From Chiloscyllium plagiosum (Eukaryota), in assembly GCF_004010195.1 (NCBI RefSeq), contig NC_057754.1, positions 1,942,306-2,006,305 of the forward strand: DNA of 64,000 bases. Direction: 5' to 3'. The position numbers and the translations under genes were made by a program. The notes below the pieces were generated by a model. The model saw nothing but the letters and a program-made list of their open reading frames with translations. It was not told the DNA's origin and ran no database searches. Below, piece after piece: positions 3,395 to 61,075 of this stretch; position 1 is the stretch's first letter; the number at the start of each line of letters is the position of its first letter.

Positions 3395-3601
3395 CGAGGA
3401 GAAAGTGAGGACTGCTGATGCTGGAGATCAGAGCTGAAAATGTGTTGCTGGAAAAGCGCAGCAGATCATGCAGCATCCAAGGAGCAGGAGAATCGAAGTT
3501 TCGGGCATGAGCCTGAAGAAGGGCTCATGCCCGAAACGTCAATTCTCCTGCTCCTTGGCTGCTGCCTGACCTGCTGCGCTTTTCCAGTAACACATTTTCA
3601 G
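3395..3601. mobile_element. Fold-back PLE 3'-end insertion (HHR family A)
   Basis: Inverted arms of about 80 bp meet near 3512. The 15-bp TSD is ctcacctac(t/c)atcct at 3380-3394 and 3602-3616. Confidence 0.85.
3513..3540 (+). ncRNA. Minimal hammerhead ribozyme core (family A)
   Basis: Sequence is CTGAAGA-A-GGGC-TCAT-GCCC-GAAA-CGTC. The 5' arm of helix I is lost at the inversion junction. Confidence 0.7.
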
Positions 3602-4332
3602 CTCACCTACCATCCTACTAGCATCCACATCCAGAGGTCTATTGCCACCATTTCTGCCACCTCCAGTGGAATACCATCACCAGACACACATTTCCCTTCC
3701 CTTCCCTTGGCAACCTTCCACCTGGTCCAGTCCTCCTTCACTCCCAATACTCCTCCACAGCCCCACGACACCTTTCTCTGTAACCGCAGAAGATGTAACA
3801 CATGTCTGTTTACTTTCTCTCTCCTCAGTATCCAGTAGCCCAAATACACTTTCCAGATGAATCAATGCTTTACCTGCACTTCACTCAAACTAGTCTACTG
3901 CATTCATTGCTCACAATGTGATCGTCTCTACATTGGGGAAAAGAAGTGTAGATTGGGTGACCATCTCACAGAACACCTATGTTCTGTCTGCAAAAAAGAC
4001 CCTGAACTGCCAATTGAACACTCTGCCTTTTTCCCTGCCCAACATCTCTGTCTTAGGCTTGCTGCAGTCCTCCAGCGAAGCTCAGCACAAGCTGGAAGAA
4101 CAGTGCTTCATTTTCCGCTTGGGAACTGTACAACCTTCTGTACTCCGTGTTGAGTTCAATAATTTTAGGGCTTGAGGAACCTTCTCCTATTTATTCTCCT
4201 TGTCTGACTGTTGTCCACTCCTTTGTCTGTCCAACTGTTCCCCTTTCATTGGACTCTCTCTCCACCTATCATTTACTCCTTACCCCCTTTGTCCACCCTA
4301 ACTTATGCATAAAATGCTTTTCCCTAGCTACC

Positions 4333-4366
4333 CTGAAGAAGAGTCATTGGACCTGAAACATTAACT
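4333..4366 (+). ncRNA. Degenerate minimal hammerhead core (family B) at a PLE 3' end
   Basis: Sequence is CTGAAGA-AGAGTC-ATTG-GACCT-GAAA-CATT-AACT. Helix II is mutated relative to the copies at 20740 and 55414. Confidence 0.5.
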
Positions 4367-6925
4367 CTAATTTCTCTCCACAGATGCTACCAGACCTGCT
4401 GAGTTTTTCCAGCAATTTCTGTTTTTGTTTCTGATTTCCAGCATCTGCAGTCATTTATTTTTTGATTTGCTGGGCTTTCAGGTTTGGTATGGAAACCAGA
4501 TCAGAGATGAAACTAGAAAGTTCCTGAGTTTTGTGACAGAAGGGTTTTCCTCCAAATGGCACACTGTGGAGGTATATATGTGGGCCACAGAGAGGAATAG
4601 ATTCCAACTTGTCTCCTGTTTGTTATTAATGAGTTAATCTCAGTTGAAGAAACAGTTGAGAGGCTATATTTGGTATCTACACACAAGAATGGATGAGAGG
4701 AAAGCCAGCTAAAGCCTCATATTGATTGATATTGTAGGTTTGGGGCATGTCTCATCAGGACAAGCTCCAGTCTGGGAGTAATTGTCGTCATTGCCAAGGT
4801 GACTGGTTAGTTAAGTTGTCCATACAGCTAGTAAGTGGGTCTGATTAATGCCAAAGATATGGCAATATGACTTCCCGTTCCAGTTGAAGCAGATTTAGGG
4901 GCCTGACTATTCGGGCCTAATCTTAAAAATGTCATGGCAGTTAGCCATGGTTAGGTCAATAAAGACCTGCCTTTGGTCAGACAGCAGGAGAAAAGATATG
5001 ATGTATTTAATTAACGTGAATTTAAAATGAAACACAGTGACTTGAAACTACAGGAGTTTAATGGAGCATGTGAGTCACTAGTTTCTTTCGAAATGGAATT
5101 GAAAGCTAATCCCAAATGTTGGGTATTTATGAAATATAATCAATTTTCATCACAATGTAATTTATACACTTTGCACTGAGGTTAGCAGGAAGACGTCTGC
5201 TGCATTGTATCCCATCATTCCCAGGTGCTGCACAGTTTTGGTTTGTGGTTTGGAAGGCAGCAATCCTCTGTAGTTTTCACACTCATCTTTGATGACTTGG
5301 TTCTCGTATTGTCAGCAGCTTCAGCAGGCAGAATTTTCTGCGCTTCACTGCTTCTGTGAAGAGCAGGTGCCACAGGGTAATTCACTGAAAAGTAGAGGAA
5401 ACTTAATTACAGGATGAGAAACCTTTGGTTGAATGTTTCAAACAAGTTACAAAGTTAACAGAGATTTGGTAGAATCAATAGCACTGGATCTTTGACATGG
5501 ATTTGGATAGTGCCACTCCAAAGGCCTTGAAAGCAAACTTGAGTTTTGTGGAATTGTTTAGCAGATTTTGCTTTGCCGAAGGGACTGATTGTATTTGCAT
5601 AGACAAAAGTGTCATTCATGAATTAGTGCCTGCAGAGAGCACAGTCAGAAATTGAGGCCAAGAAAAGCTCACTGTTATGGCCATTACATCTTACATTTTT
5701 ATTCAGTATTGGGGAGCAATGTGAAAATTTACTTAAGACACGAGGATGTGTGCAGATGTTCTGGATCTTGTATCAAATGAATAGGTTATGATTATATCTG
5801 GATATAGTGGAGAAATAGTTCTTTATTTGAGCCATGTTGTCAAGACTATCTTTTTTGTGTTTTTTTTTAAATTGTGAACAGGACTGAAATGAGAACTAAC
5901 TTGTTTAAAACCAGAGCTTTGCAAGGATTGCTGCATATTGTGAAAAGCAAATAACCAGACCCTCATGGCAGGCATCATTTGGACAGCTGCTTGAACCAAC
6001 TATAATTTAAGTTTAGGTTGCAGCTGAACTGGAACTGTGAGGGGACAAATACAGATGCAGCTTTGGTTGGCAACAAGGAGTTGATGGATCTATGGACTAG
6101 TGACCAATTATTGTCCACAAAGGCATTTTGCCTGCCAGCAACTGTGAGATTGGTTCTTGGGTAACTATACAGCTTGGAGCTGGGTACAAGATACGGAGAG
6201 AAATGTTCAGATATCAAATAGCTCAGGTACTGTCTCTCTGTTCTCTGCAGTCAAAACTCCCTTTAAACCTGAAAAGAAGGTTTAGTTTTCCTTAACAGTT
6301 GCTGTAAGTTGTGACTTTTTCAACTGAAAAGGTAGAGACCACTTTAAGAGCACCACCCACCCTATGCCTCTTGCAAACCAGTGGAAGCACTCAGAAATAA
6401 AAGGCTGAGAAGAAACCTTCTAATGAGCAAAAACAATTTCAACAGATGTTATGAACTACTGAACTACTTTCCCAATTTTCTTCCATCCATTTTCCTTCCT
6501 TACCTGCATCTATCTGACTGTCTGTCTGTGTATAAGGGGGAGTTTACAAGGAAATAAAGTTTGAATTGGTGGTGTTCTATGCCGATGAGTTATAACCGTT
6601 TACTTGTAGCTACAGTCTAATTACTTGTAATAAATAGTAATTTGGGTGGCACGGTTGCTCAGTGGTTAGCACTGCTGCCTGACAGCACCAGAGACCTGGG
6701 TTCAATTTCACCCTTGGACGACTGTCTGTGTGGAGTTTGCACATTCTCCCTGTGTCTGCGTGGGTTTCCTCCCAGTGCTCTGGTTTCCTCCCACAGTCCA
6801 AAGGTGTGCAGGTTTTGGTGAATTGTCCATGCTAAATTGGCTATAATGTTAGGTGCATTAGTTGGAGAGAAATGGGTCTAGATGGATTACTCTTTGGAGG
6901 GTCGGTGTGGACTTGGGCCAAATGG

Positions 6926-7057
6926 AGGAGAAAGTGAGGTCTGCAGATGCTGGAGATCAGAGCTGGAAATGTGTTGCTGGAAAAGCGCAGCAGGTCAGGC
7001 AGCATCCAGGGAACAGGAGAATCGACGTTTCGGGCATAAGCCCTTCTTCAGGAAGGG
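6926..7057 (-). mobile_element. PLE 3'-end insertion (HHR family A) inside the SINE
   Basis: Perfect 14-bp TSD cttgggccaaatgg at 6912-6925 and 7058-7071. A stub of an inverted arm, 'gaagggctt', sits at the junction. Confidence 0.85.
7024..7051 (-). ncRNA. Minimal hammerhead ribozyme core (family A), intact
   Basis: The minus strand reads ttc-CTGAAGA-A-GGGC-TTAT-GCCC-GAAA-CGTC-gat. Confidence 0.75.
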
Positions 7058-11512: not shown

Positions 11513-14500
11513 GCTTCACCGCTGACCACCATCCAGGCTCACCTGTGCTTCACCACTGATCACCCTCCGGGCTCGCCAGGCTTCACCACCGACCTCAGCT
11601 TCGCCACTGACCACCATCCAGGCTCACCAGGCGTCACCACCTACTTCAGCTTCACCGCTGACCACCATCCGGGCTCACCAGGCTTCAAAACACTGACCTC
11701 CACTTCACCGCTGATGACCATCCGGCCTCACCAAGCTTCACCACTGACTTCCGCTTCAGCTCTGACCATCATCCGGGCTCACCATGCTTCACCACTGACC
11801 TCCGCTTCACCGCTGATGACCATCCGGGCTCATCAGGCTTCACCACTGACCTCCACTTCACCGCTGATGACCATCCGGGCTCACCAGGCTTCACCACTGA
11901 CTTCCGCTTCAGCACTGACCACCATCCGGGCTCACCATTAACCTCCGCTACACCGCTGACGACCATCTGGGCTCACCAGGCTTCAACACTGACCTCCGCT
12001 TCATCGCTGACCACCATTCGGGCTCACCAGGCTTCACCACTGACCTCCGCTTCAACGCTGACCACCATCCGGGTTCAACAGGCTTCACCACTGACCTCTG
12101 TTTCAGCGTTGACCACCATCTGGGCTCACCAGGCTTCAACACTGACCTCCACTTCACCACTGACCACCATCCAACCTCACCAGGCTTCACCACTCACCTC
12201 CACTTCAGCGCTGACCACCATCTGGGGTTCAACAGGCTTCACCACTGACCTCCGCTTCACCGCTGACCACGATTCGCGTTCAACAGGCTTTGCCACTGAC
12301 CTCTGCTTCACCGCTGACCACGATCGGGTTCACCTGTGCCTCCCTGCTGACCATCTTCAGGGCTTGCCAGGCTTCGCCAACGACCTGTGTTTCACAGCTG
12401 ACCACCATCTGGGCTCACCAGGCTTCACCACTGACTTCCGCTTCAGCGCTGACCACCATCCGGGCTCACCAGGCATCACCACTGACCTCCGCTTCAGTGC
12501 TGACCACCATCCGGGCTCACCAGGCTTCCACACTGATCTCCACTTCACCGCTGACCACCATCCGGGCTCACCAGGCTTCAACACTGACCTCCGCTTCAGC
12601 GCTGACCATGACTGGGTTCACCTGTGCCTCCCTGCTGACCACCCTCAGGGCTCGCCAGGCTTCGCCAATGACCTGTGCTTCACCGCTGACCATCATCGGG
12701 GCTCACCAGGTTTCACCACTGGCTTGTACTTCACCGCTGACCACCATAGGGGCTCACCAGGCTTCACCACCACTGACTTGTGCTTCACTGCTGACCGTCA
12801 TCGGGACTCACCACGCTTCACACCGACTACCACTTCACCGCTGACCACCATCAGGGCGCACCAGACTTCACTACTGACCTGTGCTTGACCGCTGACCACC
12901 ATCCGGGCTCACCAGGCTTCACCATCAACCTGTAATTCACCGTTGACCGCTGACCACCATCAGGGCTCACCAGGCTTCACCATCAACCTCTGTTTCACTG
13001 CTGATTGCCATCGAGGTTCACTAGGCTTCACCATCAACATCTGCTTCACCGCTGACCACCATCCGGGCTCACCAGGCTTCCACACTGATCTTATCTTCAC
13101 CGCTGACCACCATCCGGGGTCACCAGGCTTCACCACTGATCTCCGCTTCACCGCTGACCACCATCCAGGCTCACCAGGCTTCACCACTGACCTCCGCTTC
13201 AGTGCTGACCACCATCCAGGCTCACCAGGCATCGCCACTGACCTCCGCTTCAGTGCTGACCACCATCTGGGCTCACCAGGCTTCACCACTGACCTCCAAT
13301 TCACCGCTGCCCACCATGCGAGCTCACCAGGCATCACCAAGACCTCCACTTCACCGCTGACCACCATCCGGGTTCAACAGCTTCACCAGTGACCTCTGTT
13401 TCAGCGCTAACCACCATCCGTGCTCACCAGGCATCACCACTGACCTCTGCTTCTCCGCTGACCATGATTGGGTTCACCTGTGCCTCCCTGCTGACCACCC
13501 TCAGGGCTCGCCAGGCTTCGCCAATGACCTGTGCTTCACCGCTGACCACCATCGGGGCTTACCAGGCTTCACCACTGGCTTGTACTTCACCGCTGACCAC
13601 CATAGGGGCTCACCAGGCTTCACCATCAATGACTTGTGCTTCACTGCTGACCATCATCGGGGCTCACTACGCTTCACACGGACTACCACTGCACTGCTGA
13701 CCACCATTAGGGCTCACCAGACTTCACTACTGACCTGTGCTTGACCGCTGACCACCATCCGGGCTCACCAGGCTTCACCATCTACCTCTAATTCACCATT
13801 GACCGCTGACCACCATCAGGGCTCACTAGGCTTCACCATCGACCTCTGCTTCACCGCTGATGACCATCCGGGCTCACCAGGTTTCACCACCCACCTTCAC
13901 TTCAGCGCTGACCACCATCAGGGCTCAACAGGCTTCACCACTGACCTCCATTTCACCGCTGCCCACCATCCGGGTTCACCAGGCATCACCACTGACCTCC
14001 ACTTCACTGCTGACCACCATCCGGGTTCAACAGGCTTCACCACTGACCTCTGCTTCAGCGCTGACCACCATCCGGGCTCACTAGGCTTCACCACTGACCT
14101 CCACTTCACCGCTGACTACCATCCAGGCTCACCAGGCTTCAACACTGACCTCCGCTTCAGCGCTGACCACCATCTGGGCTCACCAGGCTTCACCACCGAC
14201 TCTGCTTCAGCGCTGACCACCATTCGGGCTCACCAGGCTTCAACACTGACCTCCACTTCACCGCTGACCACCATCCGGGTTCAACAGGCTTCGCCGCTGA
14301 CCACCATCCGGGCTCACCAGGCATCACCGCTGACCATGATCGGGTTCACCTATGCCTCCCTGCTGACTACCTTCAGGGCTTTGCCACTGACCTCCACTTC
14401 ATCGCTGACCATCATCCGGGTTCAACAGGCTTCAACACTGACCTCTGCTTCACCGCTGACCACCATCCGGGCTCACCAAGCTTCACCACCGACCTCCGCT

Positions 14501-14682
14501 TCACTGCTGACCACCATCGGGGCTCACCATCAACTTCTGCTTCACTGCTGACCGCTGACTGGCATCAGGGTTCACCAGGCTTCACCACCGACCTCCACTT
14601 CACCGCTGACCAATGACCACCATCGGGGCTCACTAGGCTTCACCACCGACCTGTGCTTCACTGCTGACTGCCATCAGCGCTT
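11513..14682. repeat. GC-rich 51-bp tandem array (VNTR/minisatellite), about 60 units, with higher-order blocks
   Basis: Unit ccaccatccgggctcaccaggcttcaccactgacctccgcttcaccgctga is 51 nt, giving a 17-aa period in the ORF track. It contains the internal sub-repeat gcttcaccRctgacc twice. Confidence 0.95.
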
Positions 14683-15943: not shown

Positions 15944-16339
15944 GGAGTGTGGTACTGGAAAAGCACAGCCGGTCAGGCAGCATCTGAGGAGCAGGAGAGT
16001 CGACTTTTCGAGTGTAAGCTTAGAGAGGTGCCCACACCTCAGAAGGCTGTGGAGGTGGAGGAGATTACAGGGAAAGGAGAGGTCAGAGAGAGTGAACATG
16101 GGATAATCTAGATATTGATTGATTGGAAGCTAATGATGGTGAGCAAGCACAGGTGTAACAGTTGGAGGTCAAGACCCATCATAAACACTTAAGCATGGAA
16201 GTGTCGGCCATCGTTTCAGTTTCAGTGCCCAGAGAACTCTGCACAATGAAAAAAGTAGAACTCTCCCTAATGTCCTGGCTATGCTTTTCTAGCACCACAC
16301 TTTTTGACTCTCTAGCATCTGCAGTCCTCACTTTCTCCC
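15944..16339. mobile_element. Fold-back PLE 3'-end insertion carrying a captured 264-bp local sequence
   Basis: The family A minus arm (15944-16020) and plus arm (16281-16339) flank 16020-16283, which is the reverse complement of 16957-17221. The imperfect TSD is aaagctaagat / acagctaaggt. Confidence 0.8.
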
Positions 16340-16878: not shown

Positions 16879-17089
16879 ATCATCTTGTGTCTTTAAAATG
16901 ACTGTATTGACTTCACTTCCTCTGTAGCTGTTTCAATAGCTTAATCTAATTTCAAACATTGGCCAGGATATCAGGGAGAGTTCTACTTTTCTCATCATGC
17001 AGAGTTCTCTGGGCACTGAAACTGAAAAGACGGCCTACACTTCCATGCTTAACTGCTGGTAATGGGTCTTGACTTCCAATGGTTACACC

Positions 17090-17465
17090 TGTGCTTGCTC
17101 ACCTTTATTAGCTTCCAATCAAGCAACATCTAGATTATCCCATGTTCATTCTCTCTGACCTCTCGCTTCTCTGTCATCTCCTCCACCTCCACAGCCTTCT
17201 GCGTTGTGGGCACTTCTCTAATTCTGGCCTCTTTTGCATTCACACTTGTAATTTTCCACTGTTGGCAGCCATGCTGTCAATTACCAAGGCTGAGAGCTCT
17301 GGAATTTCCTCTCTGTATCTCTCTATCTCTGGCTCAAATTCCTCTTCCAAAATACTCCTTACACTTGGTTAACCTAAATGTTTGGATCTCTGACCTCATA
17401 TGTGGCTTGGCATCATATTTTGTTTTATAACCCTCTTGTAAAAGACCTTGAGAACCTGTCACTAC
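17090..17465 (+). mobile_element. Old L2-like LINE 3' remnant
   Basis: It resembles the remnants at 32435-32665 and 61530-61815, including 'ctaaactctggaattcc' type motifs and the L2-type tail. Confidence 0.45.
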
Positions 17466-20739: not shown

Positions 20740-20868
20740 TTGAGGAAGGGTCACTTGACCCGAAACATTAAGTCTGATTTCTCTCCACAGATGCTGCCAG
20801 ACCTGCTGAGCTTTTCCAGCAATTTCTATTTTGTCTCTGATTTACAGCATCCACAGTTCTTTCAGATT
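20740..20868 (+). mobile_element. PLE 3'-end insertion beginning at an HHR core (family B)
   Basis: tTGAGGA-A-GGGTC-ACTT-GACCC-GAAA-CATT is followed by the same tail as 4365-4455. A possible TSD is ttaaccatatcttt / ttaaccacaccctt. Confidence 0.75.
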
Positions 20869-29100: not shown

Positions 29101-30029
29101 CCACAAGTTTCCAACACATCCCAAACTCCAGACCCTTCCCTCCGACACTCCTTTTATGTCTCAGACTCCACCGTCAGACCTTTGGATCCCTATTCACCTC
29201 GACTTCACTCCCCTCCACAGATTCACCCTTGCAAATCCAAACTTCAGTGCAATCTGGTATTCTCCTCCTTCCCTCCCATGTGCTGTAGAGTTCAACAAGA
29301 AAGTTTACTAAACACAGGACAGCACAAAGTCAGCTGGTCATGCTGCTTTTAAACAACATGAAATGGGCACAAGGAGATGCTTGTGTGCTCGAGTCAAGAT
29401 TAGAGTGATGCTGGAAAAACACAGCAAGTCAGGCAACATCCGAGGATTGACTTTATTGTGAAGGTAGGACTTTGTAGTAAAATTTTATTGTAATTAATAT
29501 TCATAGAATGTAAATGTACAAAACCCATCACAGCATGAGCGCACCACAAACATTCTGCTAACTTGTCTAAACCTCTTAACCTGGAAAGTAAGGAAATGGC
29601 AATTTTGCATCCTGCCTAACTCAGTGACCCTGTAGGCCATGTTTCCCACAGTTACAGGCTCCATAAAATGCTCCCTGTTTTCTGTCTAGATTCCTCCCTT
29701 GATCTACCTTCTCAATTACAGCTTCTACATTAAATGTTTGCCCTCTCTGCAGTATGTCAGCCAAACTAATTCGTGCTGCTAATGAGTTTTCTCACAGACG
29801 GCGTGTGCACAAACACTGGTGGAACAAAATAATATGCTGGTGTTTATGTCCAAGGCCATAGAAAATGTTTTGAACAGTAGGAAACAATTAAAAACAAACA
29901 AACCTGCTTGAGGAACACTTACAGTTGTGTTACAAAACTTGTTTTATTTCTGCCACTGTTTCTTTCCTCGTTCTCTTGAATAGGTTGACTTCTGCTGAAA
30001 TGGATAAAATACTTAATTAATTCTTATGT

Positions 30030-30245: not shown

Positions 30246-30476
30246 AGTCACAGAATCACAGAATTGTTATTAGATTGTTATGCTAATGGAAAAAGCGACC
30301 ACTGCATAGTCCCGTGAAGATGAAATCTGTCTTCAAATTGAGAATACCCTCAATTGGTAACTATTGTTATCACAGTGCTAAATGGGATATGATTTGGCGA
30401 TGCCGGTGTTGGACTGGGATGTACAAAGTTAAAAATCATTCAGCAGGTTATAGTCCAATAGGTTTAATTGGAAGCA

Positions 30477-30511
30477 CACTAGCTTTCGGAGCGTCACTCC
30501 TTCATCAGGTG
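30477..30511 (-). ncRNA. Minimal hammerhead ribozyme (family C), intact
   Basis: The minus strand reads CAC-CTGATGA-A-GGAG-TGACG-CTCC-GAAA-GCTA-GTG: helix I CAC/GTG, helix II GGAG/CTCC, NUH = CUA, and palindromic AGCT in place of helix III. Confidence 0.8.
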
Positions 30512-30738
30512 ATTGTGGAGGACACAATTCTAAGGCACAGAATTTATAGCAAAAATTTACAGTGTGATGTAATTGAAATTATATATTGAAAAATACCTTG
30601 ATTGTCTGTTGAGTCTTTGATCGAACAGATGAAAGATTCAACAGACAATCAAGGTTTTTTTCAATGTCTAATCTCAGTTACATCACACTGTAAATTTTTG
30701 CTATAAATTCTGTGCCTTAGAATTGTGTCCTCCACAAT

Positions 30739-30773
30739 CACCTGATGAAGGAGTGACGCTCCGAAAACTAGTG
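30739..30773 (+). ncRNA. Minimal hammerhead ribozyme (family C), one substitution
   Basis: Sequence is CAC-CTGATGA-A-GGAG-TGACG-CTCC-GAAA-ACTA-GTG. Confidence 0.7.
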
Positions 30774-30864
30774 TGCTTCCAATTAAACCTGTTGGACTAT
30801 AACCTGGTGTTGTGTGATTTTTAACTAAATGGGATAGGTTTTGAAAAAAGATCACCTCAACTTT

Positions 30865-35509: not shown

Positions 35510-35728
35510 GGAGAAAATGACGACTGCAGATGCTGGAGATCAGAGTCAAAACTGTGGCGCTGGATAAGCACAGCCGGTTAGGCAGCATCCGGGGAGCAGG
35601 AGAGTCGACGTTTCGAGCATAAGCTTTTCATCTTACCTGATGAAGAACTTATGCTCAAAACGTCAACTCTCCTGCTCCTCGAATGCAGCCTGAGTGGATG
35701 AGTTTTTCCAGTGCTAGAGGTTTTGACA
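35510..35728. mobile_element. Fold-back PLE 3'-end insertion (HHR family A variant)
   Basis: Inverted arms meet near 35633 with back-to-back HHR cores: minus GATGA-AAAGC-TTAT-GCTC-GAAACGTC and plus CTGATGA-AGAAC-TTAT-GCTC-AAAACGTC. The TSD is unclear. Confidence 0.8.
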
Positions 35729-37248: not shown

Positions 37249-37453
37249 GCTGAAAACGTGTTGCTGGAAAAGCGCAGCAGGTCAGGCAGCATCCAAAGAA
37301 CAGGAGAATCGACGTTTCGGGCATAAGCCCTTCTTCAGGAATGCCCGAAACATCGATTCTCCTGTTCCTTGGATGCTGCCTGACCTGCTGCGCTTTTCCA
37401 GCAACACATTTTCAGCTCTGATCTCCAGCATCTGCAGCTCTCACTTTTTCCCT
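37249..37453. mobile_element. Fold-back PLE 3'-end insertion (HHR family A)
   Basis: Inverted arms meet near 37342. Perfect 13-bp TSD gttatgttcctta at 37236-37248 and 37454-37466. Confidence 0.9.
37311..37338 (-). ncRNA. Minimal hammerhead ribozyme core (family A), intact
   Basis: The minus strand reads cattc-CTGAAGA-A-GGGC-TTAT-GCCC-GAAA-CGTC-gattc. Confidence 0.75.
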
Positions 37454-47451: not shown

Positions 47452-48760
47452 AAGACCCAAGAACTATGGATGCTGGAAATCAGAAACAAAGACAAACATT
47501 GCTGGAACTCAGCAGGTCTGGCAGCATCTGTGGAGAGAAAAAAAAGAGTTAACCCTTCTTCAGAACTGATTGTAGCTGGGAAAAGGATGGTATATATGAT
47601 AAAGAAGGTATGGGGCAAGAAGTAAGTGATAGATGGAGATGGAGCCAACAGAGAGGAAAACAATTGAGCAGACAAAGGAAAGGTAAAGGTCAGCCTGGGT
47701 GAATGAATAGCTGCTAATGGGCATCATTTGTAGCTGACAATGGGTTGATTGTGTTAGCAGCCTATGTAATGACAGGTTTATAGGTAAGGACTTGGGAGAA
47801 GGTGTTCAGGGCCCTACATTTATTGAACTCAGTATTGAGTCCAGAATGCTGGTTCTTCGAGCTGGCTGTAAGATTTTCTGAAGTACTGCAGTCAGCCCGA
47901 GGCAGAGATTTTGGCAGGGGGACATGTGGTGGCGTGTTGAAAAGGCAGGGGATTGGAAACTCATGGTCATTTTTGAGGACAGAATGTAGGTGTTCTGCAG
48001 AAGTGGTCACCCAGTCTGCATTTCATCCCCCACATCGTGAGCAGAGAATATAGCAGACTAGATTGAGTGAAATGTAAGTAAGTCCCTCCTTCACCTGGAA
48101 GGCATGTCTGGGACCTTGGATAGTAAGGAGGGAGGAAGTAAATGGGCAGGTGTTACACCTTCTGCCTTTGTATAGGAAGATGCCGTGTGAGTGTTGGGGT
48201 ATTGGGACCATGGTATCCTGAAGGGATTGGTCCCTCTGGAAGGCTGACAAGGGAGGGAAACAGAATGTTTATCTGGTAGTGGCATCCTGTTGGCGGTGGC
48301 GGAAATGACGGCCAATGATCCTTTGGATGGGATGGCGAGTGAGGACAAGGGGGACCATTTCGCTATTATAAGAGGGAAGAGAGGGAGTGAGGACCAAAGT
48401 GTGGGAGATGTGTCGGACCCAGCTGAGGACCCTGCCAACCGTGGTGGTGGGAAATCATTGGTTGAAGAAGAAGGTGGACATTTAGGAGGTACCCTTGTCA
48501 AAGTGGGCATCATCAGAAACAGATGCGACGAAGATGAAGGAACTTGGGAAATGGAATAGAGTCTTTGCAGGAAATAGGGTGTGAGGATGTGTAGTTAAGG
48601 TAGCTGTGGGAACTGGTGAATTTGTAGTGAATATTCATGGCCAGTCTATCCTGAGAAATGAAAACAGAGAGGCGAGGAAGGGAAGGAAGGAGTTAGAGAT
48701 AGTCTGAGTGAAGGTGAGAGTGGGATGAAAATTGGAAGCAAAATTGATAAACTTTTAAAA
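47452..48760 (-). mobile_element. Decayed Penelope-like element 3' part (family B tail)
   Basis: Reverse-complement homologue of 3000-4455: 'GRRCNTCPFTSSLLTIQGPRHAFQVKEGLTYISLNLVCYILCSRCG' and 'SGLNTEFN'. Its HHR core is internally deleted (47545-47568). Confidence 0.9.
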
Positions 48761-49371
48761 TTCTGTTTTTATATCGTTTCTTCCTTTTTCTGTGATATCT
48801 GCCCAAGGCTTGCATGCTGCTCCTGAATCTGGGGAAACTTTCTTGTACTCCTGATGGGATTATAAGAATAAGTTTACTGATAGTTGAACCTTCTGTCACC
48901 TTGAGCACTTAACCTCTGTCCATTGTAAATTCATTATACATTTTCTTTTTGATACTTCAATGACCAGTCCTCTTGTTTTCTTCTTGTACTTTCCTGTCTC
49001 CTATCTCGCCATGTTCAAATCAATATTTAGCATGGTTTCTCATATTTCCACTCTTACCTTTCCTTGAAGTTCAAATGATGAAACTCTGTTTTCCACATGT
49101 TTTTGTCTCCCCTCCCATTTTTCATATTTTTAAAATTCAATCTTATGTTGCCTAAGTATTATTTCTTTATTTACCTTGTTAATCAGATAGTGCTGCCCTT
49201 TACATTGGCTTCTCAATTTTCAGAAGTACTTACACTTCTATACAGTACAAGGATGATTTGGAATCCCAAGTTCTCTGTGCATCAAATCCTGAACACAAAA
49301 CTGACTGCATTTTCTGGGATTAAATAAGAAAATCTCATTTGGAGAAGATTTTGTGTGGAAATGGCAAACAT

Positions 49372-50412
49372 TTCATTTATATAAATGATTTGGATGTTAA
49401 CATAGGAAGTATAGTTAGTAAGTTTGCAGATGAACCAAAATTGGAGGTGTAGTGGACAGTGAAGAAGGTTACCCCAGATTACAATGGGATCTTGATCAGA
49501 TGGGCCAATGGGCCAAGGAATGACAAATGGAGTTTAATTTAAATAAATGTGAGGTGCTGCATTTTGGAAAGGCAAATCATGGCAGGACTTATACACTTAA
49601 TGGTAAGGTCCTGGGGAGAACTACTGAATAAAAAGACGTTGGAGTACAGGTTCACTCTCCTTGAAAGTAGAGTCGCATGTAGATAAGACAGTGAAGAAGG
49701 CCACCTCCAGCAGGATGTCACTGCCAGATACATATTCTGCTTCCCTCCCTCGTTTGGTATGCTTTCCTTTATTGATCAGTGCATTGAGTAATAGGAATTG
49801 GAAGGTCATGTTGCAGCTGTACTGGATATTGGTCAGGCCACTTTTGGAATACTGTGTGCAATTCTGGTCTCCCTGCTACAGGAAGGATGTTGTGAAACTT
49901 GAAAGGGCAGGAAGGATGTTGTGAAACTTGAAAGGGTTCAGAAAAGATTTACAAGGATGTTGTCAGGGTTGGCGGCTTATAGGGAGCAATAGGGAGAGGC
50001 TGAACAGGCTGGGGCTATTTTTCCTGGAGCGTCGGAGGCTGAGGGGTGACCTTATAGGGGTTTATAAAATCACGAGGGGCATGGATAGGGTAAGTAGGCA
50101 AAGGTTGGGGGAGTCCAAAGATAGAGGGCAGAGGTTTAAGGTCAGAGGGGAAAGATTTGAAAGGGACCTAAGGGACAACCTTTTAACGTAGAGGGTGGTG
50201 CATGTGTGGAATGAGCTGCCAGAGGAAGTGGTGGAGTCTGGTACAATGACAGCATTTAAAAGGCATCTGGATGGGTGTACGAATAGGAAGAGTTTAGAGG
50301 GATATGGGCCAAGTGCTGGCAAATGGGACCTCAATTAATTTAGCATATCTGGTTGGCATAGAAGAGTTGGACCAAAGGGTCTGTTTCTATGCTGTACATC
50401 TCTATGACTCTA
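49372..50412 (+). mobile_element. CR1 (HER1-like) fragment, RT end to 3' UTR
   Basis: 'ataaatgatttggat...aagtttgcagatga' (INDL...KFAD) and 'LVRPLLEYCVQFWSPCYRKDVVKLER'. It contains a 29-bp tandem duplication near 49880-49937 and a foreign 50-bp insert. Confidence 0.95.
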
Positions 50413-51277: not shown

Positions 51278-51471
51278 TGTCGATAAAGTGTGGAGCTGGA
51301 AAAAGCACAACAGGTCAAGCTGCTTCAGAGGAACAGGGAACCTTTCATCAGGTTCTGACCTGAAACGTTGCCTTCCCTGCTCCTCAGATGCTGCTTGATT
51401 TGCTATGCTTTTTTTCAGCTCCACACTTTATCAACTCTGACTTTCTAGCATCTGCAGTCCTCACTATCTCA
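51278..51471. mobile_element. Fold-back PLE 3'-end insertion, older
   Basis: Inverted arms meet near 51352 at HHR remnants ('ttcatcagg' and 'gacctgaaacgttg'). The 12-bp TSD is gagtt(t/g)tctcag-like: gagttttctcag at 51266-51277 and gagtttgctcag at 51472-51483. Confidence 0.8.
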
Positions 51472-53745: not shown

Positions 53746-55344
53746 TAACAGAAGAGATCCTTTTTTAAAGTAATCATTTTGTGATCGGGTGGGGGGGGTG
53801 GCATAAGTGAATAAAGAAGTGGAACCAGTTCATGCCTCTTCACCTGGAAGCTTGACCATTTCACGTATCCTGTCTGGAACTATAACAAATTGGGAGATCC
53901 TCACCTGGGATTTGTGCTATTCTCCTCAGCTACTTCCCATGGTGGGTAGTTCCACATTCTCATCATGCTCTAGCTAAATGGTTTCTTAGCTGAATGCTGA
54001 CATAAGGGCCATTAAAAAATAAAGCGAGGTGTCACATCTGCTGCTGACTCCTAGGGGCACGGTTTCCTGAGAATACGATGCCCAGTGCTGGTGAGAAAGA
54101 GGAAATGGAAGATGTGCGAAGTGTTTTATCTTGCTGGCCACACTCAGGATATGGCTCCTCTTGGAGCCCTGTTTTGCAGTGCTGGGTGTGAAAGGGTTGG
54201 CAGTCAGTGTTCAGTACAGCTGCTTCCAAGTGGCACAAGTGATAATTCTTGGTCGTTTGCTTACACACAGAGTTTTGATTGCATGCTTGTACTCATTTAC
54301 ATATCTGTTTGTGCATTGGTAAAATATCAAATTGAAATCCATACAGGCAGCTAAACCTGGGAAACCTTCTCTGCAGATCTTTAGATGTACCATTTAGCTG
54401 GCCGCATGCAACGGAATTCTGACGGAGAAGCAGATAAAGGAGGCAGACTGCTTGGCTTTTTCATAGCTTATTTAAATTGATTCATTGCATGATGTGCCAA
54501 CATTTCAAATATATTCTGACAGAATTCTGAATATTTGAGTGTCCCCTGTATCCAATGACAGCAGGCAGAATAAGTGAGATGAAGAGAAGGCAGAACTTCA
54601 CTTGTTCAAATCGCCATGAATATCTGAAGGTGAGAGATTGTAAAGAGGAGTGAATGGAGCTCTACATGTGAAGGTCCCCATGATCATCAAGATGGTCACT
54701 CATGGCACTGGCACTCAGAAACAAGGGCCAGTATCAGTAGACAGAATACAAGAAAAGGAAGAATTGTCTCTCTTCATAAAACTTCAGCAGAAGATCCTTT
54801 GTTCTTCTCTGTCAGGAATTCTATGCTTCCACTTTTAACATTGTGTTGAATTGCTGCAGCTTACTTCAAAGTTCAGCAGGCTCCCATCCTTGATGCACCC
54901 TGGCTGACAGCAAACCACATGTCAATTGACCTGAGAGTTTCAACAGGTGGGCTGTGAAACTCTGTCAAGATCACAAACAAACTTAGAGGGAGGAAATTAA
55001 AAGTGCCAGGAATGGCTTCCCTGTGAATTTCCATGTTGCCAAAACTGCCATCATGGTTCCAGGACTGCCAAAGCACTGGATATGCTTTGAATCTTCTTGA
55101 AATTGGTTCCAGGACTCAAATGCATATTCTCTCAGATCCTGAACATTGATACTTATCGAAAAGTATGACTCCAGATATCAGGTGAAGCAACAATTAGATT
55201 TGTCTGCATTGTCCTTCATTGTAAATTAGCCTACCTACCAACACCCATAGCCCAGAGTGAAACATGAAGAATGGCCATTTGAGTAATGTATTGAGTGAAG
55301 CTTTGGAAGATGCATCCCAGCCAGGTTGTTCAAACAAGTGGGGA

Positions 55345-55448
55345 GAAACAAAAACATAAATTTCTGGAAAAGCTCAGCAGGTCTGGCAGTATCTGTGGAT
55401 AGAGTTCAGAGATAATGTTTCGGGTCCAGTGACCCTTCCTCAGAACTG
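55345..55448 (-). mobile_element. PLE 3'-end fragment ending at an HHR (family B)
   Basis: Reverse complement of the 20740-20835 type sequence. Confidence 0.75.
55410..55447 (-). ncRNA. Minimal hammerhead ribozyme (family B)
   Basis: The minus strand reads AGTT-CTGAGGA-A-GGGTC-ACTG-GACCC-GAAA-CATT-ATCT. Helix I is AGTT/AACT in sister copies. Confidence 0.7.
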
Positions 55449-55879
55449 ATTTTTGGTAGGAAGTAGTTTTTTAGGTTTCTGATTTCCAACATCCTCAATG
55501 TTTTTTTTAAAGTAGAGAGAATAATTGAAACAATAAAGATTTGGGGCGTTGGGCCCATTAGACATGACAAGTTGTAGTTCATATGTCCTTGTTTGCTATG
55601 ATCTGCCTATACTACTTGCAAAACAAAGCTTTTCACTGTACGTAGTGTGCATGTTACTACAATAAACCTTGATGCTGTAAACAGCTAATAAGTGTATTAC
55701 ATGAACACACAGTGAAAGCTTTGTTTGCTGCATCTGTCTCATGTTGATTACTTTCAGACAATATGTTTTAATATTTCTGTAAGAAAACAAAGTGAAATAC
55801 AGGACTTGAAAAGACTCCTTTCCCTCGCTGGATGTTCAGGTCACAGGCCTGGAATATTTCCTAGTGATTATTCTTTATC

Positions 55880-56592
55880 ATGTAGAGGATACCTTCTCCT
55901 GCTACCACAAGAAGTGCAAAACCTGCACCCACACCTCTCTCCTCACCTCCGTCCCAGGCCCCAAAGAATCCATCCACATCCAACAGAAATTCACCTGTAC
56001 TTCCACACACATCATTTACTGTATCTGTTGCACCCGATGTGGTCTCCTCTACGCTAGGGACACAGGACGCCAACTCGTGGATCATTTCAGAGAACATCTC
56101 TGGGACACCAACCCCACTGCCCTGTCGCTGAATACTTTAACTCCCCCTCCCACTCTGCCAAGGACATGCAGGTCCTGGGCGTCCTCCATCGCCAAACCCT
56201 AACCACCCGACGCCTGGAGGAAGAACGCCTTGTCTTCTGCCTTGGGACCCTCCAATCACACGGCATCAGTGTGGATTTCACCAGTTTCCCCATTTCCCCT
56301 CCCCCCACCTTATCCCAGTCCCAACCTTCCAACTTGGCACTGTCCCCTTGAACAGTCCCACCTGTCCCATCTTCCTTTCCACGTATCTGCTCCACCCTCC
56401 TCTTCGACCTCTACCTCTTTCACCTCTACCTTCATCTACCTTTCCCCTTTGCCCCACCTTCTCCCATTTGTCTCTCAGTCCCCTTGGCCCACAAACCTCA
56501 TTCCTGATGAAGGGCTTATTCCTGAAACGTTGATTCTCCTGCTCTTTGGATGCCGCCTCACCAGCTGTGCTTTTCCAGCACCACATTCTTCG
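55880..56592 (+). mobile_element. Penelope-like element 3' fragment (GIY-YIG and family A tail)
   Basis: 'CKTCTHTS...FTCTSTHIIYCICCTRCGLLYARDTGRQLVDHFREHL' and 'RRLEEERLVFCLGTLQSHGISVDFTSF'. A degenerate HHR, CTGATGA-AGGGC-TTAT-TCCT-GAAACGTT, lies at 56504-56531. Confidence 0.9.
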
Positions 56593-56944: not shown

Positions 56945-57078
56945 TGATGTGGAGGAGCTGATGTTGGACTGGGATGGGTAAAGTTAAAAATCACACAACA
57001 CCAGGTTATAGTTCAACAGGTTTATTTGGAAGTCAAATAAACCTGTTGGACTATAACCTGGTGCTGTGTGATTTTTAA
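56945..57078. mobile_element. Short fold-back PLE insertion (family C tail, no HHR)
   Basis: Inverted arms of about 45 bp. Perfect 12-bp TSD cattagtaatta at 56933-56944 and 57079-57090. Confidence 0.85.
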
Positions 57079-57120: not shown

Positions 57121-57333
57121 CAATATACCGGCCAATATACAGGTCCAATATACCGGCCACTACAGCAGACAGCTGAAACTGACAACCGGAAGCGGCAGGG
57201 ACAGGCCACTATAAATGCCGGAGTAAACACCATAGAAGCGCTTCACAGGAGGCTCTCAAGCACTGAGGATGTCACCTAGACAGGGGACGAAACGTTTGCA
57301 ACAAAAACTTCCAGCTCGGCGAACAGAACCACA
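57121..57333 (+). mobile_element. PLE terminal fragment of a fourth family (HHR family D)
   Basis: 'ccaatataccggccacta' (PIYRPL) resembles a PLE ORF end. It is followed by a TATAAA near 57210 and an HHR. Confidence 0.6.
57260..57299 (+). ncRNA. Minimal hammerhead ribozyme (family D), intact
   Basis: Sequence is GCA-CTGAGGA-T-GTC-A-CCT-AGAC-AGG-G-GAC-GAAA-CGTT-TGC: helix I GCA/TGC, long helix II, palindromic AACGTT, NUH = GUU. Confidence 0.8.
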
Positions 57334-58024
57334 GCTTCCTTAAGTAAATTGAGCTGTTACCTTTTTATAGAATTAAATTTAATGCAGTGAGGACTTTTGA
57401 TGCTGTGAGCAAAATACTGTGGATCCTACAAATCTGAAATTAAGACAGGCAACATCTGTGGCTTGAGAAACCAAGACGACACTTCAGGTCAATGATCTTT
57501 CAGCAGAATAGCATTAAATATTTTTATTTCTTTAAAATAACCAGAGCACAGCCGATGTCTGTTTGTATCGTCCGGGATTATAGACTAAAGTTCTATTTCG
57601 ACGAACCTGTTGTAATACAGCTGCCAACACTATATCAAATAAGTACAACATTGGGTTACTTCTTTCAAGTTGGAGTGCTTGATGTGTTCTTATAATGTGC
57701 ACTGCAATTTGAAAGATTATCTATGACATATGTTTACATGTAATTTGGACTGCTGCTTTGTGCAATTGACTTAAAGGATTTTAGAGTACAGAAGATGACC
57801 ATTCGACACACTGTGACTGTAGTGGCTCCTGAAAGAGCTATCCAGCTAGTCCCACTCTCCAACTCTGTCCCTTTGGCCCCCTAAATTAATCACTTTCAAA
57901 TATTTCCAACATTCTAGCTTGAGTCCAAGAACTCTGAAAAGTGAATTGAAATATACAGTAAATTGGAGGTTTAGATATCCAAACTAAGACCTTCTAGTTG
58001 GCTGAGAGAGAAAGCTTCCATTTC

Positions 58025-58840: not shown

Positions 58841-59243
58841 TAGATTAGATTAGATTAGATTCCCTACAATGTAGAAACAGGCCATTCAGCCCAACAAGTC
58901 CATATAAAGGTTTATAAAATCACAAAGGGATGGACAGGGCAAGTAGCCAAGGTCTTTTTCCCAGATTAGGGAAGTCCAAAACTAGAGGGTATAGGTGAGA
59001 GGGGAAAAATTTAAAAGAGACCTAAAGGGCAACATTTTCAAACAGAAGATGGTGCGTGTATGGAATGAGCTGACAGAGGAAGTGGTGGAGGTTGGTTCAA
59101 TTACAGCATTTAAAACGTATCTGGATGGGTACATGAATAAGAAGGCTATGGGGGTTATGGGCCAGATGCTGACAAATGGGACTAATTTAATTTAGTATAT
59201 TTGGTCAGCACGGATGAGTTGGACCGAAAGGTCTATGACTCTA
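58841..59243. mobile_element. HE1 tail (minus, 58841-58903) abutting a CR1 3' fragment (plus, 58906-59243)
   Basis: A (tagat)n tail is followed by 'FKRDLKGNIFKQKMVRVWNELTEEVVE'. Confidence 0.8.
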
Positions 59244-59689
59244 ATTGCTACTCTGGATGAGTTGTGCTAGCTGAATGTAGACCACAAATCAGTCCTGGGA
59301 CTTTCCTATGGCTCAGATTCAAATGAGACAGATTGTTAATTCTGAGCTGTATCCATAACAAATGGTTAGTGGCAGCAGTCTTGGCTTGTGAGTGTTGTGT
59401 ACTCAGCTCTACCCCAATGTTAATGTTGTCAGGAATTCTTTTAAGTTACAACCATGCAGTTGCAAATCACTTGTGTTTTATTGAATGCTGCCTTCCAGCT
59501 GACAGTTCTCAAATGTAAAATTATTTGTTTGACTAAGTTTCCTCTTTTTAACAATTTGCAGCTATTATTTTGGCAAGCCCTGTTATAATGATACCTGCAG
59601 CGTGATTGAATCCGAAACTGAACAAGATAATTCCATTGTTGCTGAAACTGTGGATGTATTTTCTGTATAGTGCAACTGGTTGAGGTCGA

Positions 59690-59898
59690 CAAGGTCAGAA
59701 GTCACACGACACCAAGTTATAGTGCAACAGGTTTATTTGAAATCACAATCTTTCGGAGCATTGCTGCTTTGTCAAGTGAAGTGATGAAGGGCCACGCTTC
59801 GAAAGCTTGTGATGTCAAATAAACCTGTTGACTATAACCTGGTGTCATCTGACTTCTGACCTTGTCCACCCCAGTCCAACACCGGCACATCCACAACA
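59690..59898. mobile_element. Fold-back PLE insertion (family C variant) with two degenerate HHR cores
   Basis: Inverted arms meet near 59780. The plus core is 'gTGATGA-AGGGCCACGCTTC-GAAAGCTT-GTG'. The 13-bp TSD is tggttgaggtcga / tggttggggttga (59677-59689 and 59899-59911). Confidence 0.8.
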
Positions 59899-60409
59899 TG
59901 GTTGGGGTTGATGAAAGTAATTTTGAATGGTTGATTGACACCCTGAAGTTTTGCAAAGTTAGTTAATAGGGTCAAGAGGTTTTGCATTTAGTTGATGACT
60001 TTCTTCAGGATACAGAATGCATTGATTAGTTTTCAAAAGGGCAGGTTGCTGAATTGCCCAAATTTGTAGGCAGTACCAAAGTGGAGACAAGAACAAAGAA
60101 TGAAAACTAATGTCACAAGTTCAAACAAGACCTTGACAAGCTGGTATAACTTAGTGTTGAGGATTGCAAAGTGACAGCATTTATCAGTGGGTACAAGGAG
60201 ATGTTGTGCTAAAGGGAAAAGCAGTGAGCGATCCGAACAGGGGAGAGACATTTCAGTGGAAGGAAAGGGAAATTTGTAGCTTCTGCTTATGACATGCAAA
60301 CCTCCCTTCCTGCACTTGTTTCAGATAATGCTTTAAGACTCAGAGACAATAAAGCTGAAAAATCTGGCTTTGGATAGCTACTTTCAACTCCAAATTTTTA
60401 AAAATTATG

Positions 60410-60745
60410 TCATAGGGTGTGGGTGTCACCCGCAACATCAGCATTTATTGCCAATTCTTAATTGCTCTTGAACTGGGTACCTTGGTCGTTTATTTCATTG
60501 GGCAGTTAAGAGTCAGCAACACTGGTCTGGTTCAAGGACAGCAGATTTTCTTCCCGAATTTATGAACAGGATAGTTTCTGCCTATGCTTTCATGGTCACC
60601 TTTACTGAGACTGACTTTGAATTCCATGTCTATTGAGTTTAATTCAGTTTAGCTGTTGCCATGACAGGATTTGAACCTATGCCCTCAGAAGCGTGTGTTG
60701 GTCCTCTAGATCACTAGTCCAAGTACATTACTACTTCCCCACTGC
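60410..60745 (-). mobile_element. tRNA-headed SINE-like element (2480-2820 family)
   Basis: The reverse complement shows the head 'tagtaatgtacttggactagtgatctagagg...ggttcaaatcc', the body and the shared tail. Confidence 0.65.
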
Positions 60746-60951
60746 CAACCAAGAAGCCTTTGGATGCATTCATGGTTATGTTTTTGTGTACGTAGTTTGA
60801 TTAAATGGCCATTCTGAGTGTAAGATAAGCAGACCATTGTGAGTTTGTACTTTCCTTTCCACAAAACCCCTGATTTCCACACTATAGTGTGGTCCTATCT
60901 ACATAACTTTAACATCATCTTTTGAAACCCTCATCTATGCATTGATTACTA

Positions 60952-61075
60952 GGGGAAAGTGAGGACTGCAGGTGCTGGAGATCAGAGTCAAGATTAGAGT
61001 GGTGCTGGAAAAGCACAGCAGGTCAGGCAGCATCCGAATGAGCTTGATGAAGGGCTCCTACCCGAAACAGCGATC
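60952..61075. mobile_element. PLE 3'-end insertion (family A) with an inverted HHR stub
   Basis: The minus arm (60952-61037) is followed by plus 'tTGATGA-AGGG-CTCCTA-CCC-GAAACAGC'. Confidence 0.7.

Follow-up and report, generated by a model that had tools for sequence, protein, structure and literature searches.

The window analysed here, a 64,000-nucleotide stretch of Chiloscyllium plagiosum contig NC_057754.1, carries hammerhead ribozyme cores scattered in short copies on both strands. This raises the question of whether the cores are independent ribozymes or parts of something larger, and of how so many short copies were made.

Hammerhead motifs in the window and their families

All sites named in a preliminary description were found in the 64-kb window. 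A strict descriptor (CUGANGA-N-helix II of at least 3 bp-GAAA) returned nine sites, compared with a mean of 0.48 and a maximum of 5 in 200 dinucleotide shuffles; eight of the nine were sites already described and the ninth (61232) resembled a chance match. With 35607-35664 taken as a single entry, 13 sites had been listed. The list was partly confirmed: both catalytic boxes and U16.1-H17 were kept at nine (3513, 4333, 7051, 30508, 30742, 37338, 55443, 56504 and 57263), and four were broken, namely 20740 (C3U), 35637 (G12A) with its partner arm, 59780, and 61044 (C3U, no NUH). The 15.2-16.2 pair and three contiguous helix I pairs were additionally kept only at 30508(-) and 57263(+). The window contained 27 tail-bearing arms, including decayed or core-less ones absent from the list (Table 1), and target duplications of 12-17 bp were present at 6 of 12 tested insertions, with one of 7 bp at a further insertion. 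An Rfam search of the window gave no hammerhead matches, even at E-values up to 10. The motifs are real minimal type I hammerheads, mostly decayed here, and belong to a known class described in 2014, the min-HHR (type I) in end fragments of Penelope-like elements (PLEs).

Table 1. Hammerhead-bearing copies and related fragments in the window (+ and -, strand;., both strands; TD, target duplication; "new" marks copies absent from the preliminary list)
Feature	Position	Strand	Details
Family B element, 5′-truncated, broken	2818..4445	+	RT and GIY-YIG remains 2818-4166, linker CX4CXXC; CATAAAA (TATA-like) ~25 nt above core; core 4333-4362 lacks the 5′ strand of helix I and has a damaged helix II; tail (tblastn, translation)
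Family A head-to-head fold-back nested in B element	3395..3601	.	+ arm core 3513-3540, inverted arm in place of helix I 5′ strand; TD 15 bp, 3380-3394/3602-3616, 1 mismatch
Family A solo mini-copy	6926..7054	-	Begins 3 nt upstream of C3 with an intact core (7051-7024); tail of the long type; TD 17 bp, 1 mismatch
Family A arm, decayed (new)	15948..16030	-	Core mostly gone
Tail-only partner of preceding arm	~16274-16336	+	
Family B solo mini-copy	20740..20853	+	Core 20740-20769 with C3U
Family A tail-only fragment	29391..29446	-	No core
Family C head-to-head fold-back	30390..30824	.	Intact core with a 3-bp helix I at 30508-30480 (-); second core at 30742-30770 (+) with an altered 15.2; both arms with TATAAA at -40 and ATTAAA at +40 relative to C3; one long and one short tail; TD 12 bp
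Family A fold-back, old	35512..35712	.	+ arm core 35637 G12A; - arm core 35634 lacks C3 and U4
Family A fold-back	37249..37453	.	- arm core 37338-37311 intact, start 5 nt above C3; + arm begins within helix II; TD 13 bp
Family B copy (new)	47468..47600	-	Deletion of the GAAA box and of the 3′ strand of helix II
Family A fold-back, decayed (new)	51278..51471	.	TD 12 bp, 1 mismatch
Family B solo mini-copy	55343..55450	-	Starts TCAGTT; core 55443-55414 without the 15.2-16.2 pair and with little of helix I left
Family A 3′ part	55891..56590	+	Linker CX4CXXC and GIY-YIG remains 55891-56339; pyrimidine-rich 3′ UTR; TCATTC; core 56504-56531; short tail
Family C tail-only fold-back	56945..57078	.	No core; TD 12 bp
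Family D (Poseidon-like) end	57145..57334	+	ORF C-terminal remains 57145-57237; TATAAA at 57210; core 57263-57296 intact; ATG at 57269 (helix II start); short tail end
Family C fold-back, old	59683..59888	.	Cores broken in both arms
Family A tail (-) fused to broken core (+)	60954..61071	.	Core 61044-61071, C3U, no NUH, no tail
Family B fold-back, decayed (new)	61242..61361	.	

Comparison of the four families (A to D) revealed that pairs 2.1-1.1, 2.2-1.2, 10.2-11.2, 10.3-11.3 and 15.2-16.2 differ among them with pairing retained, which bears out the earlier statement that the helices vary between families yet still pair. An unpaired base after A9, G10.1-C11.1 and a paired helix II were present in all four, and the predicted pairing probability of G10.1-C11.1 was 0.93-1.0 in families A to C. 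The palindrome said to replace helix III was likewise found: 15.2-16.2 is palindromic, with no loop 3, in the majority sequences of A, B and D (CG) and of C (GC), and is frequently lost via CpG decay. In predicted cofolds of two copies, the lowest-energy fold was not the dimeric helix III. Helix I is typically 2 bp plus a U.U mismatch in family A (2 bp, U.U and A-U in its commonest subfamilies); family B and a single A subfamily have 4 bp, and C and D have 3 bp. The helix I ascribed to family B (AGUU/AACU) is the family majority at other loci but is not intact in any of the three window copies; the CG palindrome, also the majority elsewhere, is intact in none of these three.

Parent elements and genome-wide numbers

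In every family the motif lies downstream of a frame encoding a reverse transcriptase (RT) and a GIY-YIG endonuclease (EN) and is followed by a 70-125-nt tail that stops preferentially at either of two points. Rather than standing alone, every motif forms one end of an element with RT and GIY-YIG. Their earlier assignment to four PLE families of minimal type I hammerheads is supported. Family A frames matched RVT_1 above the cut-off and GIY-YIG slightly below it (E 3e-4), family C and D frames had RVT_1 and YIGET/YIGQT motifs, and the coding part of family B was found as remains only (tblastn). The A, C and D proteins are only 26-31% identical but have the hammerhead core in common. At one locus (L110), two direct hammerheads 3,383 nt apart flank a single ORF. 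Pseudo-LTR (pLTR) arrangements comprised this direct pair and 58 close inverted pairs, and one-sided tails and target duplications were present.

The segment that links RT to EN carries a CX2-5CXXC motif, CNRRRCNTC in A and B and CHGRRCKTC in C, which Nematis shares. By this linker motif, families A, B and C appear Neptune-like. Family D lacks the linker zinc motif and its ORF starts inside the hammerhead, as in PAc, the Poseidon element of Anolis carolinensis (Frangieh et al. 2024, PMC11167929); by these features it is probably Poseidon-like.

A generic core pattern had 164,626 matches in the genome compared with 113 for the control, and exact 30-mers matched 32,185 (A), 4,868 (B), 39,458 (C) and 17,656 (D) times. 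Extrapolation from 835 kb gave ~1.0 million end fragments, in agreement with the very large population that had been proposed.

Copy 5′ ends and RNA reads

The 5′ ends of copies cluster just above the core in families A, B and C. Of 126 core-bearing A copies, 73 start 0-6 nt above C3, 18 in the following 53 nt, 24 farther up and 11 within the core; among tail-anchored A arms, 65/130 start between -6 and +11 and four at the cut (+28), three of these with core remains. The start of most A copies is an initiator-like site ~30 nt below a TATA-like box, and a box lies 29-33 nt above the start positions in B and C (TATA or TATA-like; TTTAT in A), these calls being based on consensus motifs. The commonest start in family C is -3 (11/70), with only 7/70 at -8/-9. 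Family D showed no pile-up: all 31 copies that could be placed begin more than 27 nt away from C3, and a single unplaced copy begins ~20 nt up.

The base 5′ of the family A ATTC-core (-4) was G in 68, A in 19 and T in 13 of the first 100 of 5,220 matches, whereas one base further in, as a control, it was C in 45, T in 41 and G in 14 of the first 100 of 5,526 (G versus T, Fisher p 6e-12; counted by hand, first 30 rows re-checked). No fewer copies started at -3 (5,526) than at -4 with a non-reference base (5,220). At the family B start the counts were G47 A19 T34, with 12 of the 47 G rows resembling one duplicated locus, and in family C a G was present in 3/4 short copies starting at A(-8). In the most abundant A subfamily, GATTC also stands immediately after the cut.

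RNA reads showed the family fragments to be transcribed. In run X19, of which 2% of reads were examined and whose source organism may not be the species of the genome, family C RNA was polyadenylated ~30 nt past the predicted cut, with reads running through the uncut site. Poly(A) reads numbered 360 and 435 after +57 and +60, 12-15 nt beyond ATTAAA, where the genomic sequence is not A-rich. The signal is common only in C (64/86 copies; A 17/192, B 1/45, D 0/44), and family C fragments may donate poly(A) sites to host RNAs. The X19 poly(A) reads may derive from host genes. RNA ends at the NUH sites, named earlier as the sign of cutting, did not appear in this sample: there was neither a read-depth step nor a read end at the predicted cut, in a poly(A)-primed run poorly suited to cut products.

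Origin of the short copies and comparison with known systems

We favour, with a probability of about 0.7, the reading that the motifs are carried by end fragments of four Penelope-like families and that most short copies are likely reverse transcripts of the front end of an uncut, probably capped RNA. The end repeats would contain an LTR-like U3-R-U5 unit, of whose capped, uncut leader the short copies would be strong-stop copies. A promoter in the pLTR would set the transcript start 4 nt above C3 in A and B and 8 nt above it in C, placing the beginning of helix I at the cap or close to it. The protein of the element would nick target DNA and prime within the RNA at either tail end, and copying would run back through the uncut hammerhead and off the RNA 5′ end, adding a C opposite the cap. 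The strong-stop cDNA could then be joined to the target, giving a solo mini-copy; be joined to a second cDNA primed off the other strand, giving a fold-back whose two tails are one long and one short; or, in a strand transfer step that we infer, pass to a matching RNA 3′ end, whereupon the body would be copied and a pLTR formed. The hammerhead would be selected in active master elements, where it may cut off the capped leader or shorten the RNA at its 3′ end, probably as a dimer or aided by protein, and the dispersed copies would be passengers decaying neutrally. A more tentative extension, which we hold at somewhat under even odds, is that Neptune-like pLTRs are built LTR-style, by an internal target-primed start, run-off at a capped 5′ end 4-8 nt above the hammerhead and a jump to the polyadenylated 3′ repeat; failed jumps would account for several hundred thousand strong-stop copies, and the hammerhead would be an R-region switch decapping or deadenylating the element RNA.

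The preliminary description had suggested that intact copies might cleave host transcripts. Some 1.6e5 motifs do fit an intact generic core, the fragments are transcribed and all 11 core positions are intact in 16/20 long copies from a young A subfamily, but the dispersed core decays at a neutral rate, as fast as the tail (23/532 vs 162/2595 changes within subfamilies; base-matched expectation 27, p 0.11). At least three contiguous helix I pairs remain in just 12/94 core-intact A copies, and the predicted probability of the helix I closing pair is 0.00-0.27 once 30-60 nt of tail is included. Close neighbours formed 66 head-to-head, 10 same-strand and 11 convergent pairs (87 pairs in 864 kb), with no same-strand pair in the window; being mostly on opposite strands, they cannot form cis dimers and form long hairpins instead. 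Solo copies showed no strand bias in five regions (host genes not located), and according to PMC4209133 monomers were inactive and dimers weak in vitro. Neutral decay, head-to-head hairpins and the lack of RNA ends at the cut leave wholesale host-RNA cleavage unsupported, and we regard it as very improbable. Slightly less credible still is that the mini-copies propagate by themselves, as non-autonomous retrozymes or SINE-like elements replicating via circular or tandem RNA. Units of 90-130 nt at very high copy number would suit such an origin, and retrozymes derive from PLE pLTRs (bioRxiv 10.64898/2026.07.22.740005), but the window lacks head-to-tail unit arrays, same-strand neighbours are as scarce as noted above, mini-copies starting at -4 have no upstream TATA, their 5′ flanks differ from copy to copy, and their subfamily marks are those of long ORF-bearing copies.

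A more serious, though still unlikely, alternative is that these are ordinary 5′-truncated Penelope fragments, the pile-up and the G arising from endonuclease target preference or microhomology (a GAT or GATT target end; self-pairing of the TTC/GAA core) or from RT stalling at the hammerhead. Most solo copies share the G and AT/ATT with the target duplication (~8/10 G-bearing solo rows), which indicates that target preference contributes and may explain part of the G signal; the anole enzyme prefers 5′-ATT-3′ according to PMC11167929, and C-TTC junctions from fold-back microhomology account for 45/100 starts at -3. Against this, pile-ups without ATT occur in B (AGTT) and C (ACAA..CAC), the TATA boxes of these two families are spaced as expected, one base away G shows no enrichment, and in 5/9 fold-back junctions with G the other arm does not template it (judged by eye), target DNA not being involved there.

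The favoured reading, copying of an uncut leader, was compared with known systems. Min-HHRs in the pLTRs of metazoan PLEs were described by Cervera and De la Pena (2014, PMC4209133). They share with the present motifs an unpaired base between A9 and G10.1, G10.1-C11.1 and a palindromic 15.2-16.2 without loop 3. In both cases a genome holds more than one covarying family, truncated elements leave mostly single motifs, and opposite-strand pairs lie 100-700 bp apart. Helix I, short in both, is 4-5 bp there, a length reached here in B and one A subfamily. The counts given there are ~4,000 (coelacanth) and ~9,000 (Xenopus). The class being known, the motifs by themselves are ordinary save for how many there are, over tenfold the numbers published for vertebrates though obtained with different descriptors. 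The searched supplementary table names no shark, and the parts of the paper covered report no link of the hammerhead to transcript start. Beyond this class, the A start site at the core, the position-specific G and family C poly(A) after an uncut site fit strong-stop copies of a capped, uncut leader; we found no publication stating a hammerhead at the transcript start or a strong-stop reading for these elements.

For PAc, PMC11167929 describes internal priming at two tail ends, cutting of both strands, uncut RNA as the main substrate and protein-assisted cleavage. Family D resembles PAc in the ATG at the start of stem II, the missing linker zinc motif and two tail ends 37 nt apart, and the uncut template and absence of RNA-seq ends at the cut are further likenesses; the PAc model, in the parts of that paper covered, has no strong-stop or strand-transfer step. 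Neptune-like A to C have copies starting at the hammerhead, whereas Poseidon-like D does not. Inverted-pLTR insertions with a one-sided tail are known from EN+ PLEs (Craig et al. 2021, PMC8557442; Arkhipova et al. 2013, PMC3846280), which share the head-to-head inverted 5′-truncated copy, a 30-40-bp tail at one end only, target duplications and a pLTR with TATA and Inr-like sequence. Their palindromes are attributed there to endonuclease resolution or self-priming on an antisense template, whereas the fold-back tails here (n=58; 39 long+short, 19 short+short, 0 long+long vs 6.6 expected, p 0.001), together with the G at the junction, suggest a pair of primed cDNAs copied from a sense leader. 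In full-length LINE-1 and SVA insertions a 5′ untemplated G has been interpreted as copied cap (PMC9341517, PMC4859970).

If the junction signature is likewise a cap, the transcript start of three families would have been mapped from DNA alone and the ribozyme would lie within the first 40 nt of the mRNA, which would explain its very short helix I. In LTR elements, minus-strand strong-stop transfer consists of synthesis primed close to the 5′ end of the RNA and a subsequent jump to the 3′ repeat. Family C is like them in that TATA, putative start, poly(A) site and putative priming site follow one another in the order U3-R-U5; unlike them, its primer would be nicked target DNA and not tRNA, the short product would itself be integrated, a ribozyme lies in the R-like region and an integrase is absent.

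Hammerhead motifs and the elements that carry them

Analysis of the window with a strict descriptor revealed nine matches, against 0.48 in shuffled sequence, and hammerhead sites were recovered at the positions where the preliminary description had placed them. Nucleotides are numbered by the usual hammerhead scheme (C3, G12), and signed positions are counted from C3. Both catalytic boxes and the NUH triplet were retained at nine of the 13 listed sites and not at the remainder; two of the 13 had, in addition, an intact helix III pair and a helix I with three pairs in a row (table). The helices reported for family B proved to be the family majorities, although none of the three B copies in the window carried them whole. 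An Rfam scan of the window (E up to 10) returned hairpin-type chance matches only and none to a hammerhead family, and the broken reading frames of the window had no Pfam match. The motifs belong to the class described by Cervera and De la Pena (PMC4209133).

The claim of a very large population of ribozyme motifs was borne out across the 3.56 Gb searched, as a generic core pattern had 164,626 matches compared to 113 for the reversed control. Exact or near-exact patterns matched 32,185 times for one 30-mer of family A, 4,868 times for B, 39,458 times for C and 17,656 times for D, each with a control count of 0. A search anchored on the tail (the stretch 3′ of the core) rather than on the core found 243 arms in three regions of unselected DNA totalling 864 kb (835 kb once N is discounted; a further 11 candidates touching edges or gaps were excluded), approximately one per 3.4 kb. 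This corresponds to roughly 1.0 million arms in the genome if the three surveyed regions are typical.

The flanking DNA linked the motifs to Penelope-like elements. Linker and GIY-YIG remains lay upstream of one family A core in the window, and longer relatives of this family encoded RT and GIY-YIG within one frame. At locus L110, part of which reads N, a pair of hammerheads in direct orientation, spaced 3,383 nt apart, flanked an ORF, the frame of which stayed open through the first hammerhead and its tail. One family B core formed the end of a broken RT/GIY-YIG-type element into which an A fold-back (two head-to-head inverted arms) had inserted, and the genome also yielded elements of families C and D that have RT frames. 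A CX4CXXC linker was present in A, B and C and absent from D; Craig et al. (PMC8557442) give such a linker for Neptune and Nematis. The ATG of family D lay at the start of helix II, as in the anole Poseidon PAc (PMC11167929). Among named proteins, those of bamboo and carpet sharks came closest to the family D protein (85–88% identity). Outside carpet sharks its best named relatives were tapeworm and fluke elements (40–52% identity), a likeness which, judged from sequence, may reflect either horizontal transfer or annotation bias.

Features of the window and of other loci of the genome (the latter with an L prefix)
Position	Strand	Feature
3395–3601; L169, L183, L196, L326		Penelope-like ends, which often insert into or beside other Penelope-like elements, including those of other families
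4333		Family B core ending a broken element
11547–14675		GC-rich 51-nt minisatellite, ~61 copies with a higher-order block structure; crossed by open frames that reach 408 aa
16020–16279 / 16962–17221		Inverted repeat pair of 260 nt, 682 nt apart; adjoins a decayed family A pair
23854–24496, 33039–33427, 37790–38351, 44489–45211, 49984–50340, 58927–59183, 62712–63275		Numerous 3′ fragments of a single abundant LINE family
23930–24496	-	Translation presumably resembling a CR1-type ORF2 C-terminus
30390–30824		Family C fold-back
30508	-	Site keeping helix III pair and three helix I pairs
30590–30660		Axis of the family C fold-back, within a natural 3′ UTR hairpin ~90–120 nt above C3
47468–47600		B-type end
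47924–48763	-	Additional Neptune-like body of greater divergence (35% identity with the family A protein); possibly belongs to the B-type end
56504		Family A core with linker and GIY-YIG remains
57263	+	Site keeping helix III pair and three helix I pairs
L101:6001–6516		Tandem repeat of 120 nt within the 5′ portion of a long family A frame, which stays open; either an element feature or an assembly artefact
L315:525–2285		Family D protein
L325:4981–5014		Strand-switch joint of the family C fold-back, recurring in DNA and RNA runs

State of the dispersed copies

The further suggestion that the dispersed copies act as a population of working ribozymes was probably mistaken, as judged from core decay, weak helix I, the orientation of neighbours and read ends in X19, an RNA run that may be of another species. 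In long family A copies the non-CpG core had 23 departures from the subfamily majority among 532 positions and the tail 162 among 2,595; the 23 core differences compare with a base-matched expectation of 27 (p 0.11), in a test on 54 of 81 copies chosen by their upstream body and grouped in three clusters, each of at least 6. The pooled comparison of core and tail (5.5% vs 13%) combines different subfamilies and was for that reason discarded as evidence on selection acting on copies. Both G12 and the helix III palindrome lie within CpG, and helix I had at least three contiguous pairs in 12 of 94 core-intact A copies. Same-family neighbours no more than 2.5 kb apart (n = 87) were mostly head to head (66), the others being convergent (11) or same-strand (10), and the head-to-head pairs of the window were predicted to form hairpins of −107 to −304 kcal/mol. 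Family A reads of X19 came from both strands and gathered their ends at no site.

The A, C and D proteins were 26–31% identical to one another, so the fixed core and changed helices would reflect selection along master lineages. Coding was rejected as the cause of core conservation, as the core is kept across families with differing frames, and so was a splice acceptor above the core, no upstream exon being common to the copies. Solo copies (single arms) showed no strand bias in five regions, where counts were small, and a Pfam scan for host exons in 144 of the 401 non-repeat open stretches of at least 40 aa gave no match.

Starts, ends and the poly(A) site

The start lay 0–6 nt above C3 in 73 of 126 core-bearing A copies. 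In 18 others it fell within the 53 nt beyond that and in 24 higher still; the remaining 11 started within the core, a figure that includes some mis-hits on the inverted arm. Tail-anchored A arms (n = 130) started between −6 and +11 in 65 cases and at the cut in four, three of the four with core remains. The copied RNA was thus mostly uncut. The A at −4 is surrounded by TCATTC in family A and TCAGTT in B, which we take to match the initiator consensus; TATAAA or CATAAA in B, and TTTAT in A, lie ~30 nt above it, and family C has TATAAA 32 nt above A(−8). The peak of loose ends at −4, which stems partly from subfamilies with other upstream sequence, was left out as proof.

In A copies without the element's own C at −5, the base before ATTC had the composition G68, A19 and T13 (first 100 of 5,220 matches), compared to G14, T41 and C45 at a control one base further in (first 100 of 5,526). 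When 29 junctions were read by eye, most solo copies had the G within the target duplication; at fold-back joints with a G it was untemplated in five of nine. Family B had a weaker excess (36 G vs 19 A without a duplicated locus, p 4e-4), and three of four short C copies starting at A(−8) carried the G. In LINE-1 an untemplated 5′ G has been interpreted as a copied cap (PMC9341517, PMC4859970). If the short copies are reverse transcripts of an uncut, probably capped RNA front end, a C incorporated across from the cap would base-pair with a G in the target, and would look untemplated in cDNA-to-cDNA joints. Target preference combined with fold-back microhomology is a rival source of both pile-up and G. 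Against the cap reading, family D lacks any pile-up of starts at the hammerhead and family C has its main start at −3.

Tails had two preferred ends in each family, about +90 and +122 or more in A, +85 and +120 in C, and +73 and +111 in D, which resembles the internal-priming result for PAc (PMC11167929). Head-to-head pairs within 700 nt (n = 58) comprised 39 with a long and a short tail, 19 with two short and none with two long (6.6 expected), which suggests that the two target strands were primed at different sites.

For a family C copy, 360 and 435 reads of X19, which may be host transcripts and may come from another species than this genome, carried A-runs after +57 and +60. These began 12–15 nt beyond ATTAAA, in a place without A-rich genomic sequence, and depth on that strand stayed at 1,000–1,190 through the predicted cut, showing no step. 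The signal was present in 64 of 86 C copies, including both arms of the fold-back in the window. TATA, start, hammerhead, poly(A) site and priming sites follow one another in U3-R-U5 order. A polyadenylated 3′ end without the tail would require priming in the 5′ copy, and then a jump to reach the element body.

Relation to described elements

Open-licence literature yielded no shark families or numbers for Penelope-like hammerheads, some of which may be listed in the supplements of PMC4209133, PMC11167929 and a bioRxiv retrozyme preprint. It likewise yielded no statement of a start-site pile-up with an extra G, of the cap/strong-stop reading or of a poly(A) site behind the hammerhead. Motif class, palindrome and opposite-strand pairs (PMC4209133), internal priming on an uncut template (PMC11167929), and both a promoter in the pLTR, or pseudo-LTR, and one-sided tails (Craig et al., PMC8557442; Arkhipova et al., PMC3846280) are already published. 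Compared to these, the shark families and their numbers, the G-marked pile-up of starts and the poly(A) site are the apparently new parts, and the start-site/cap signature provides a testable mechanistic lead.
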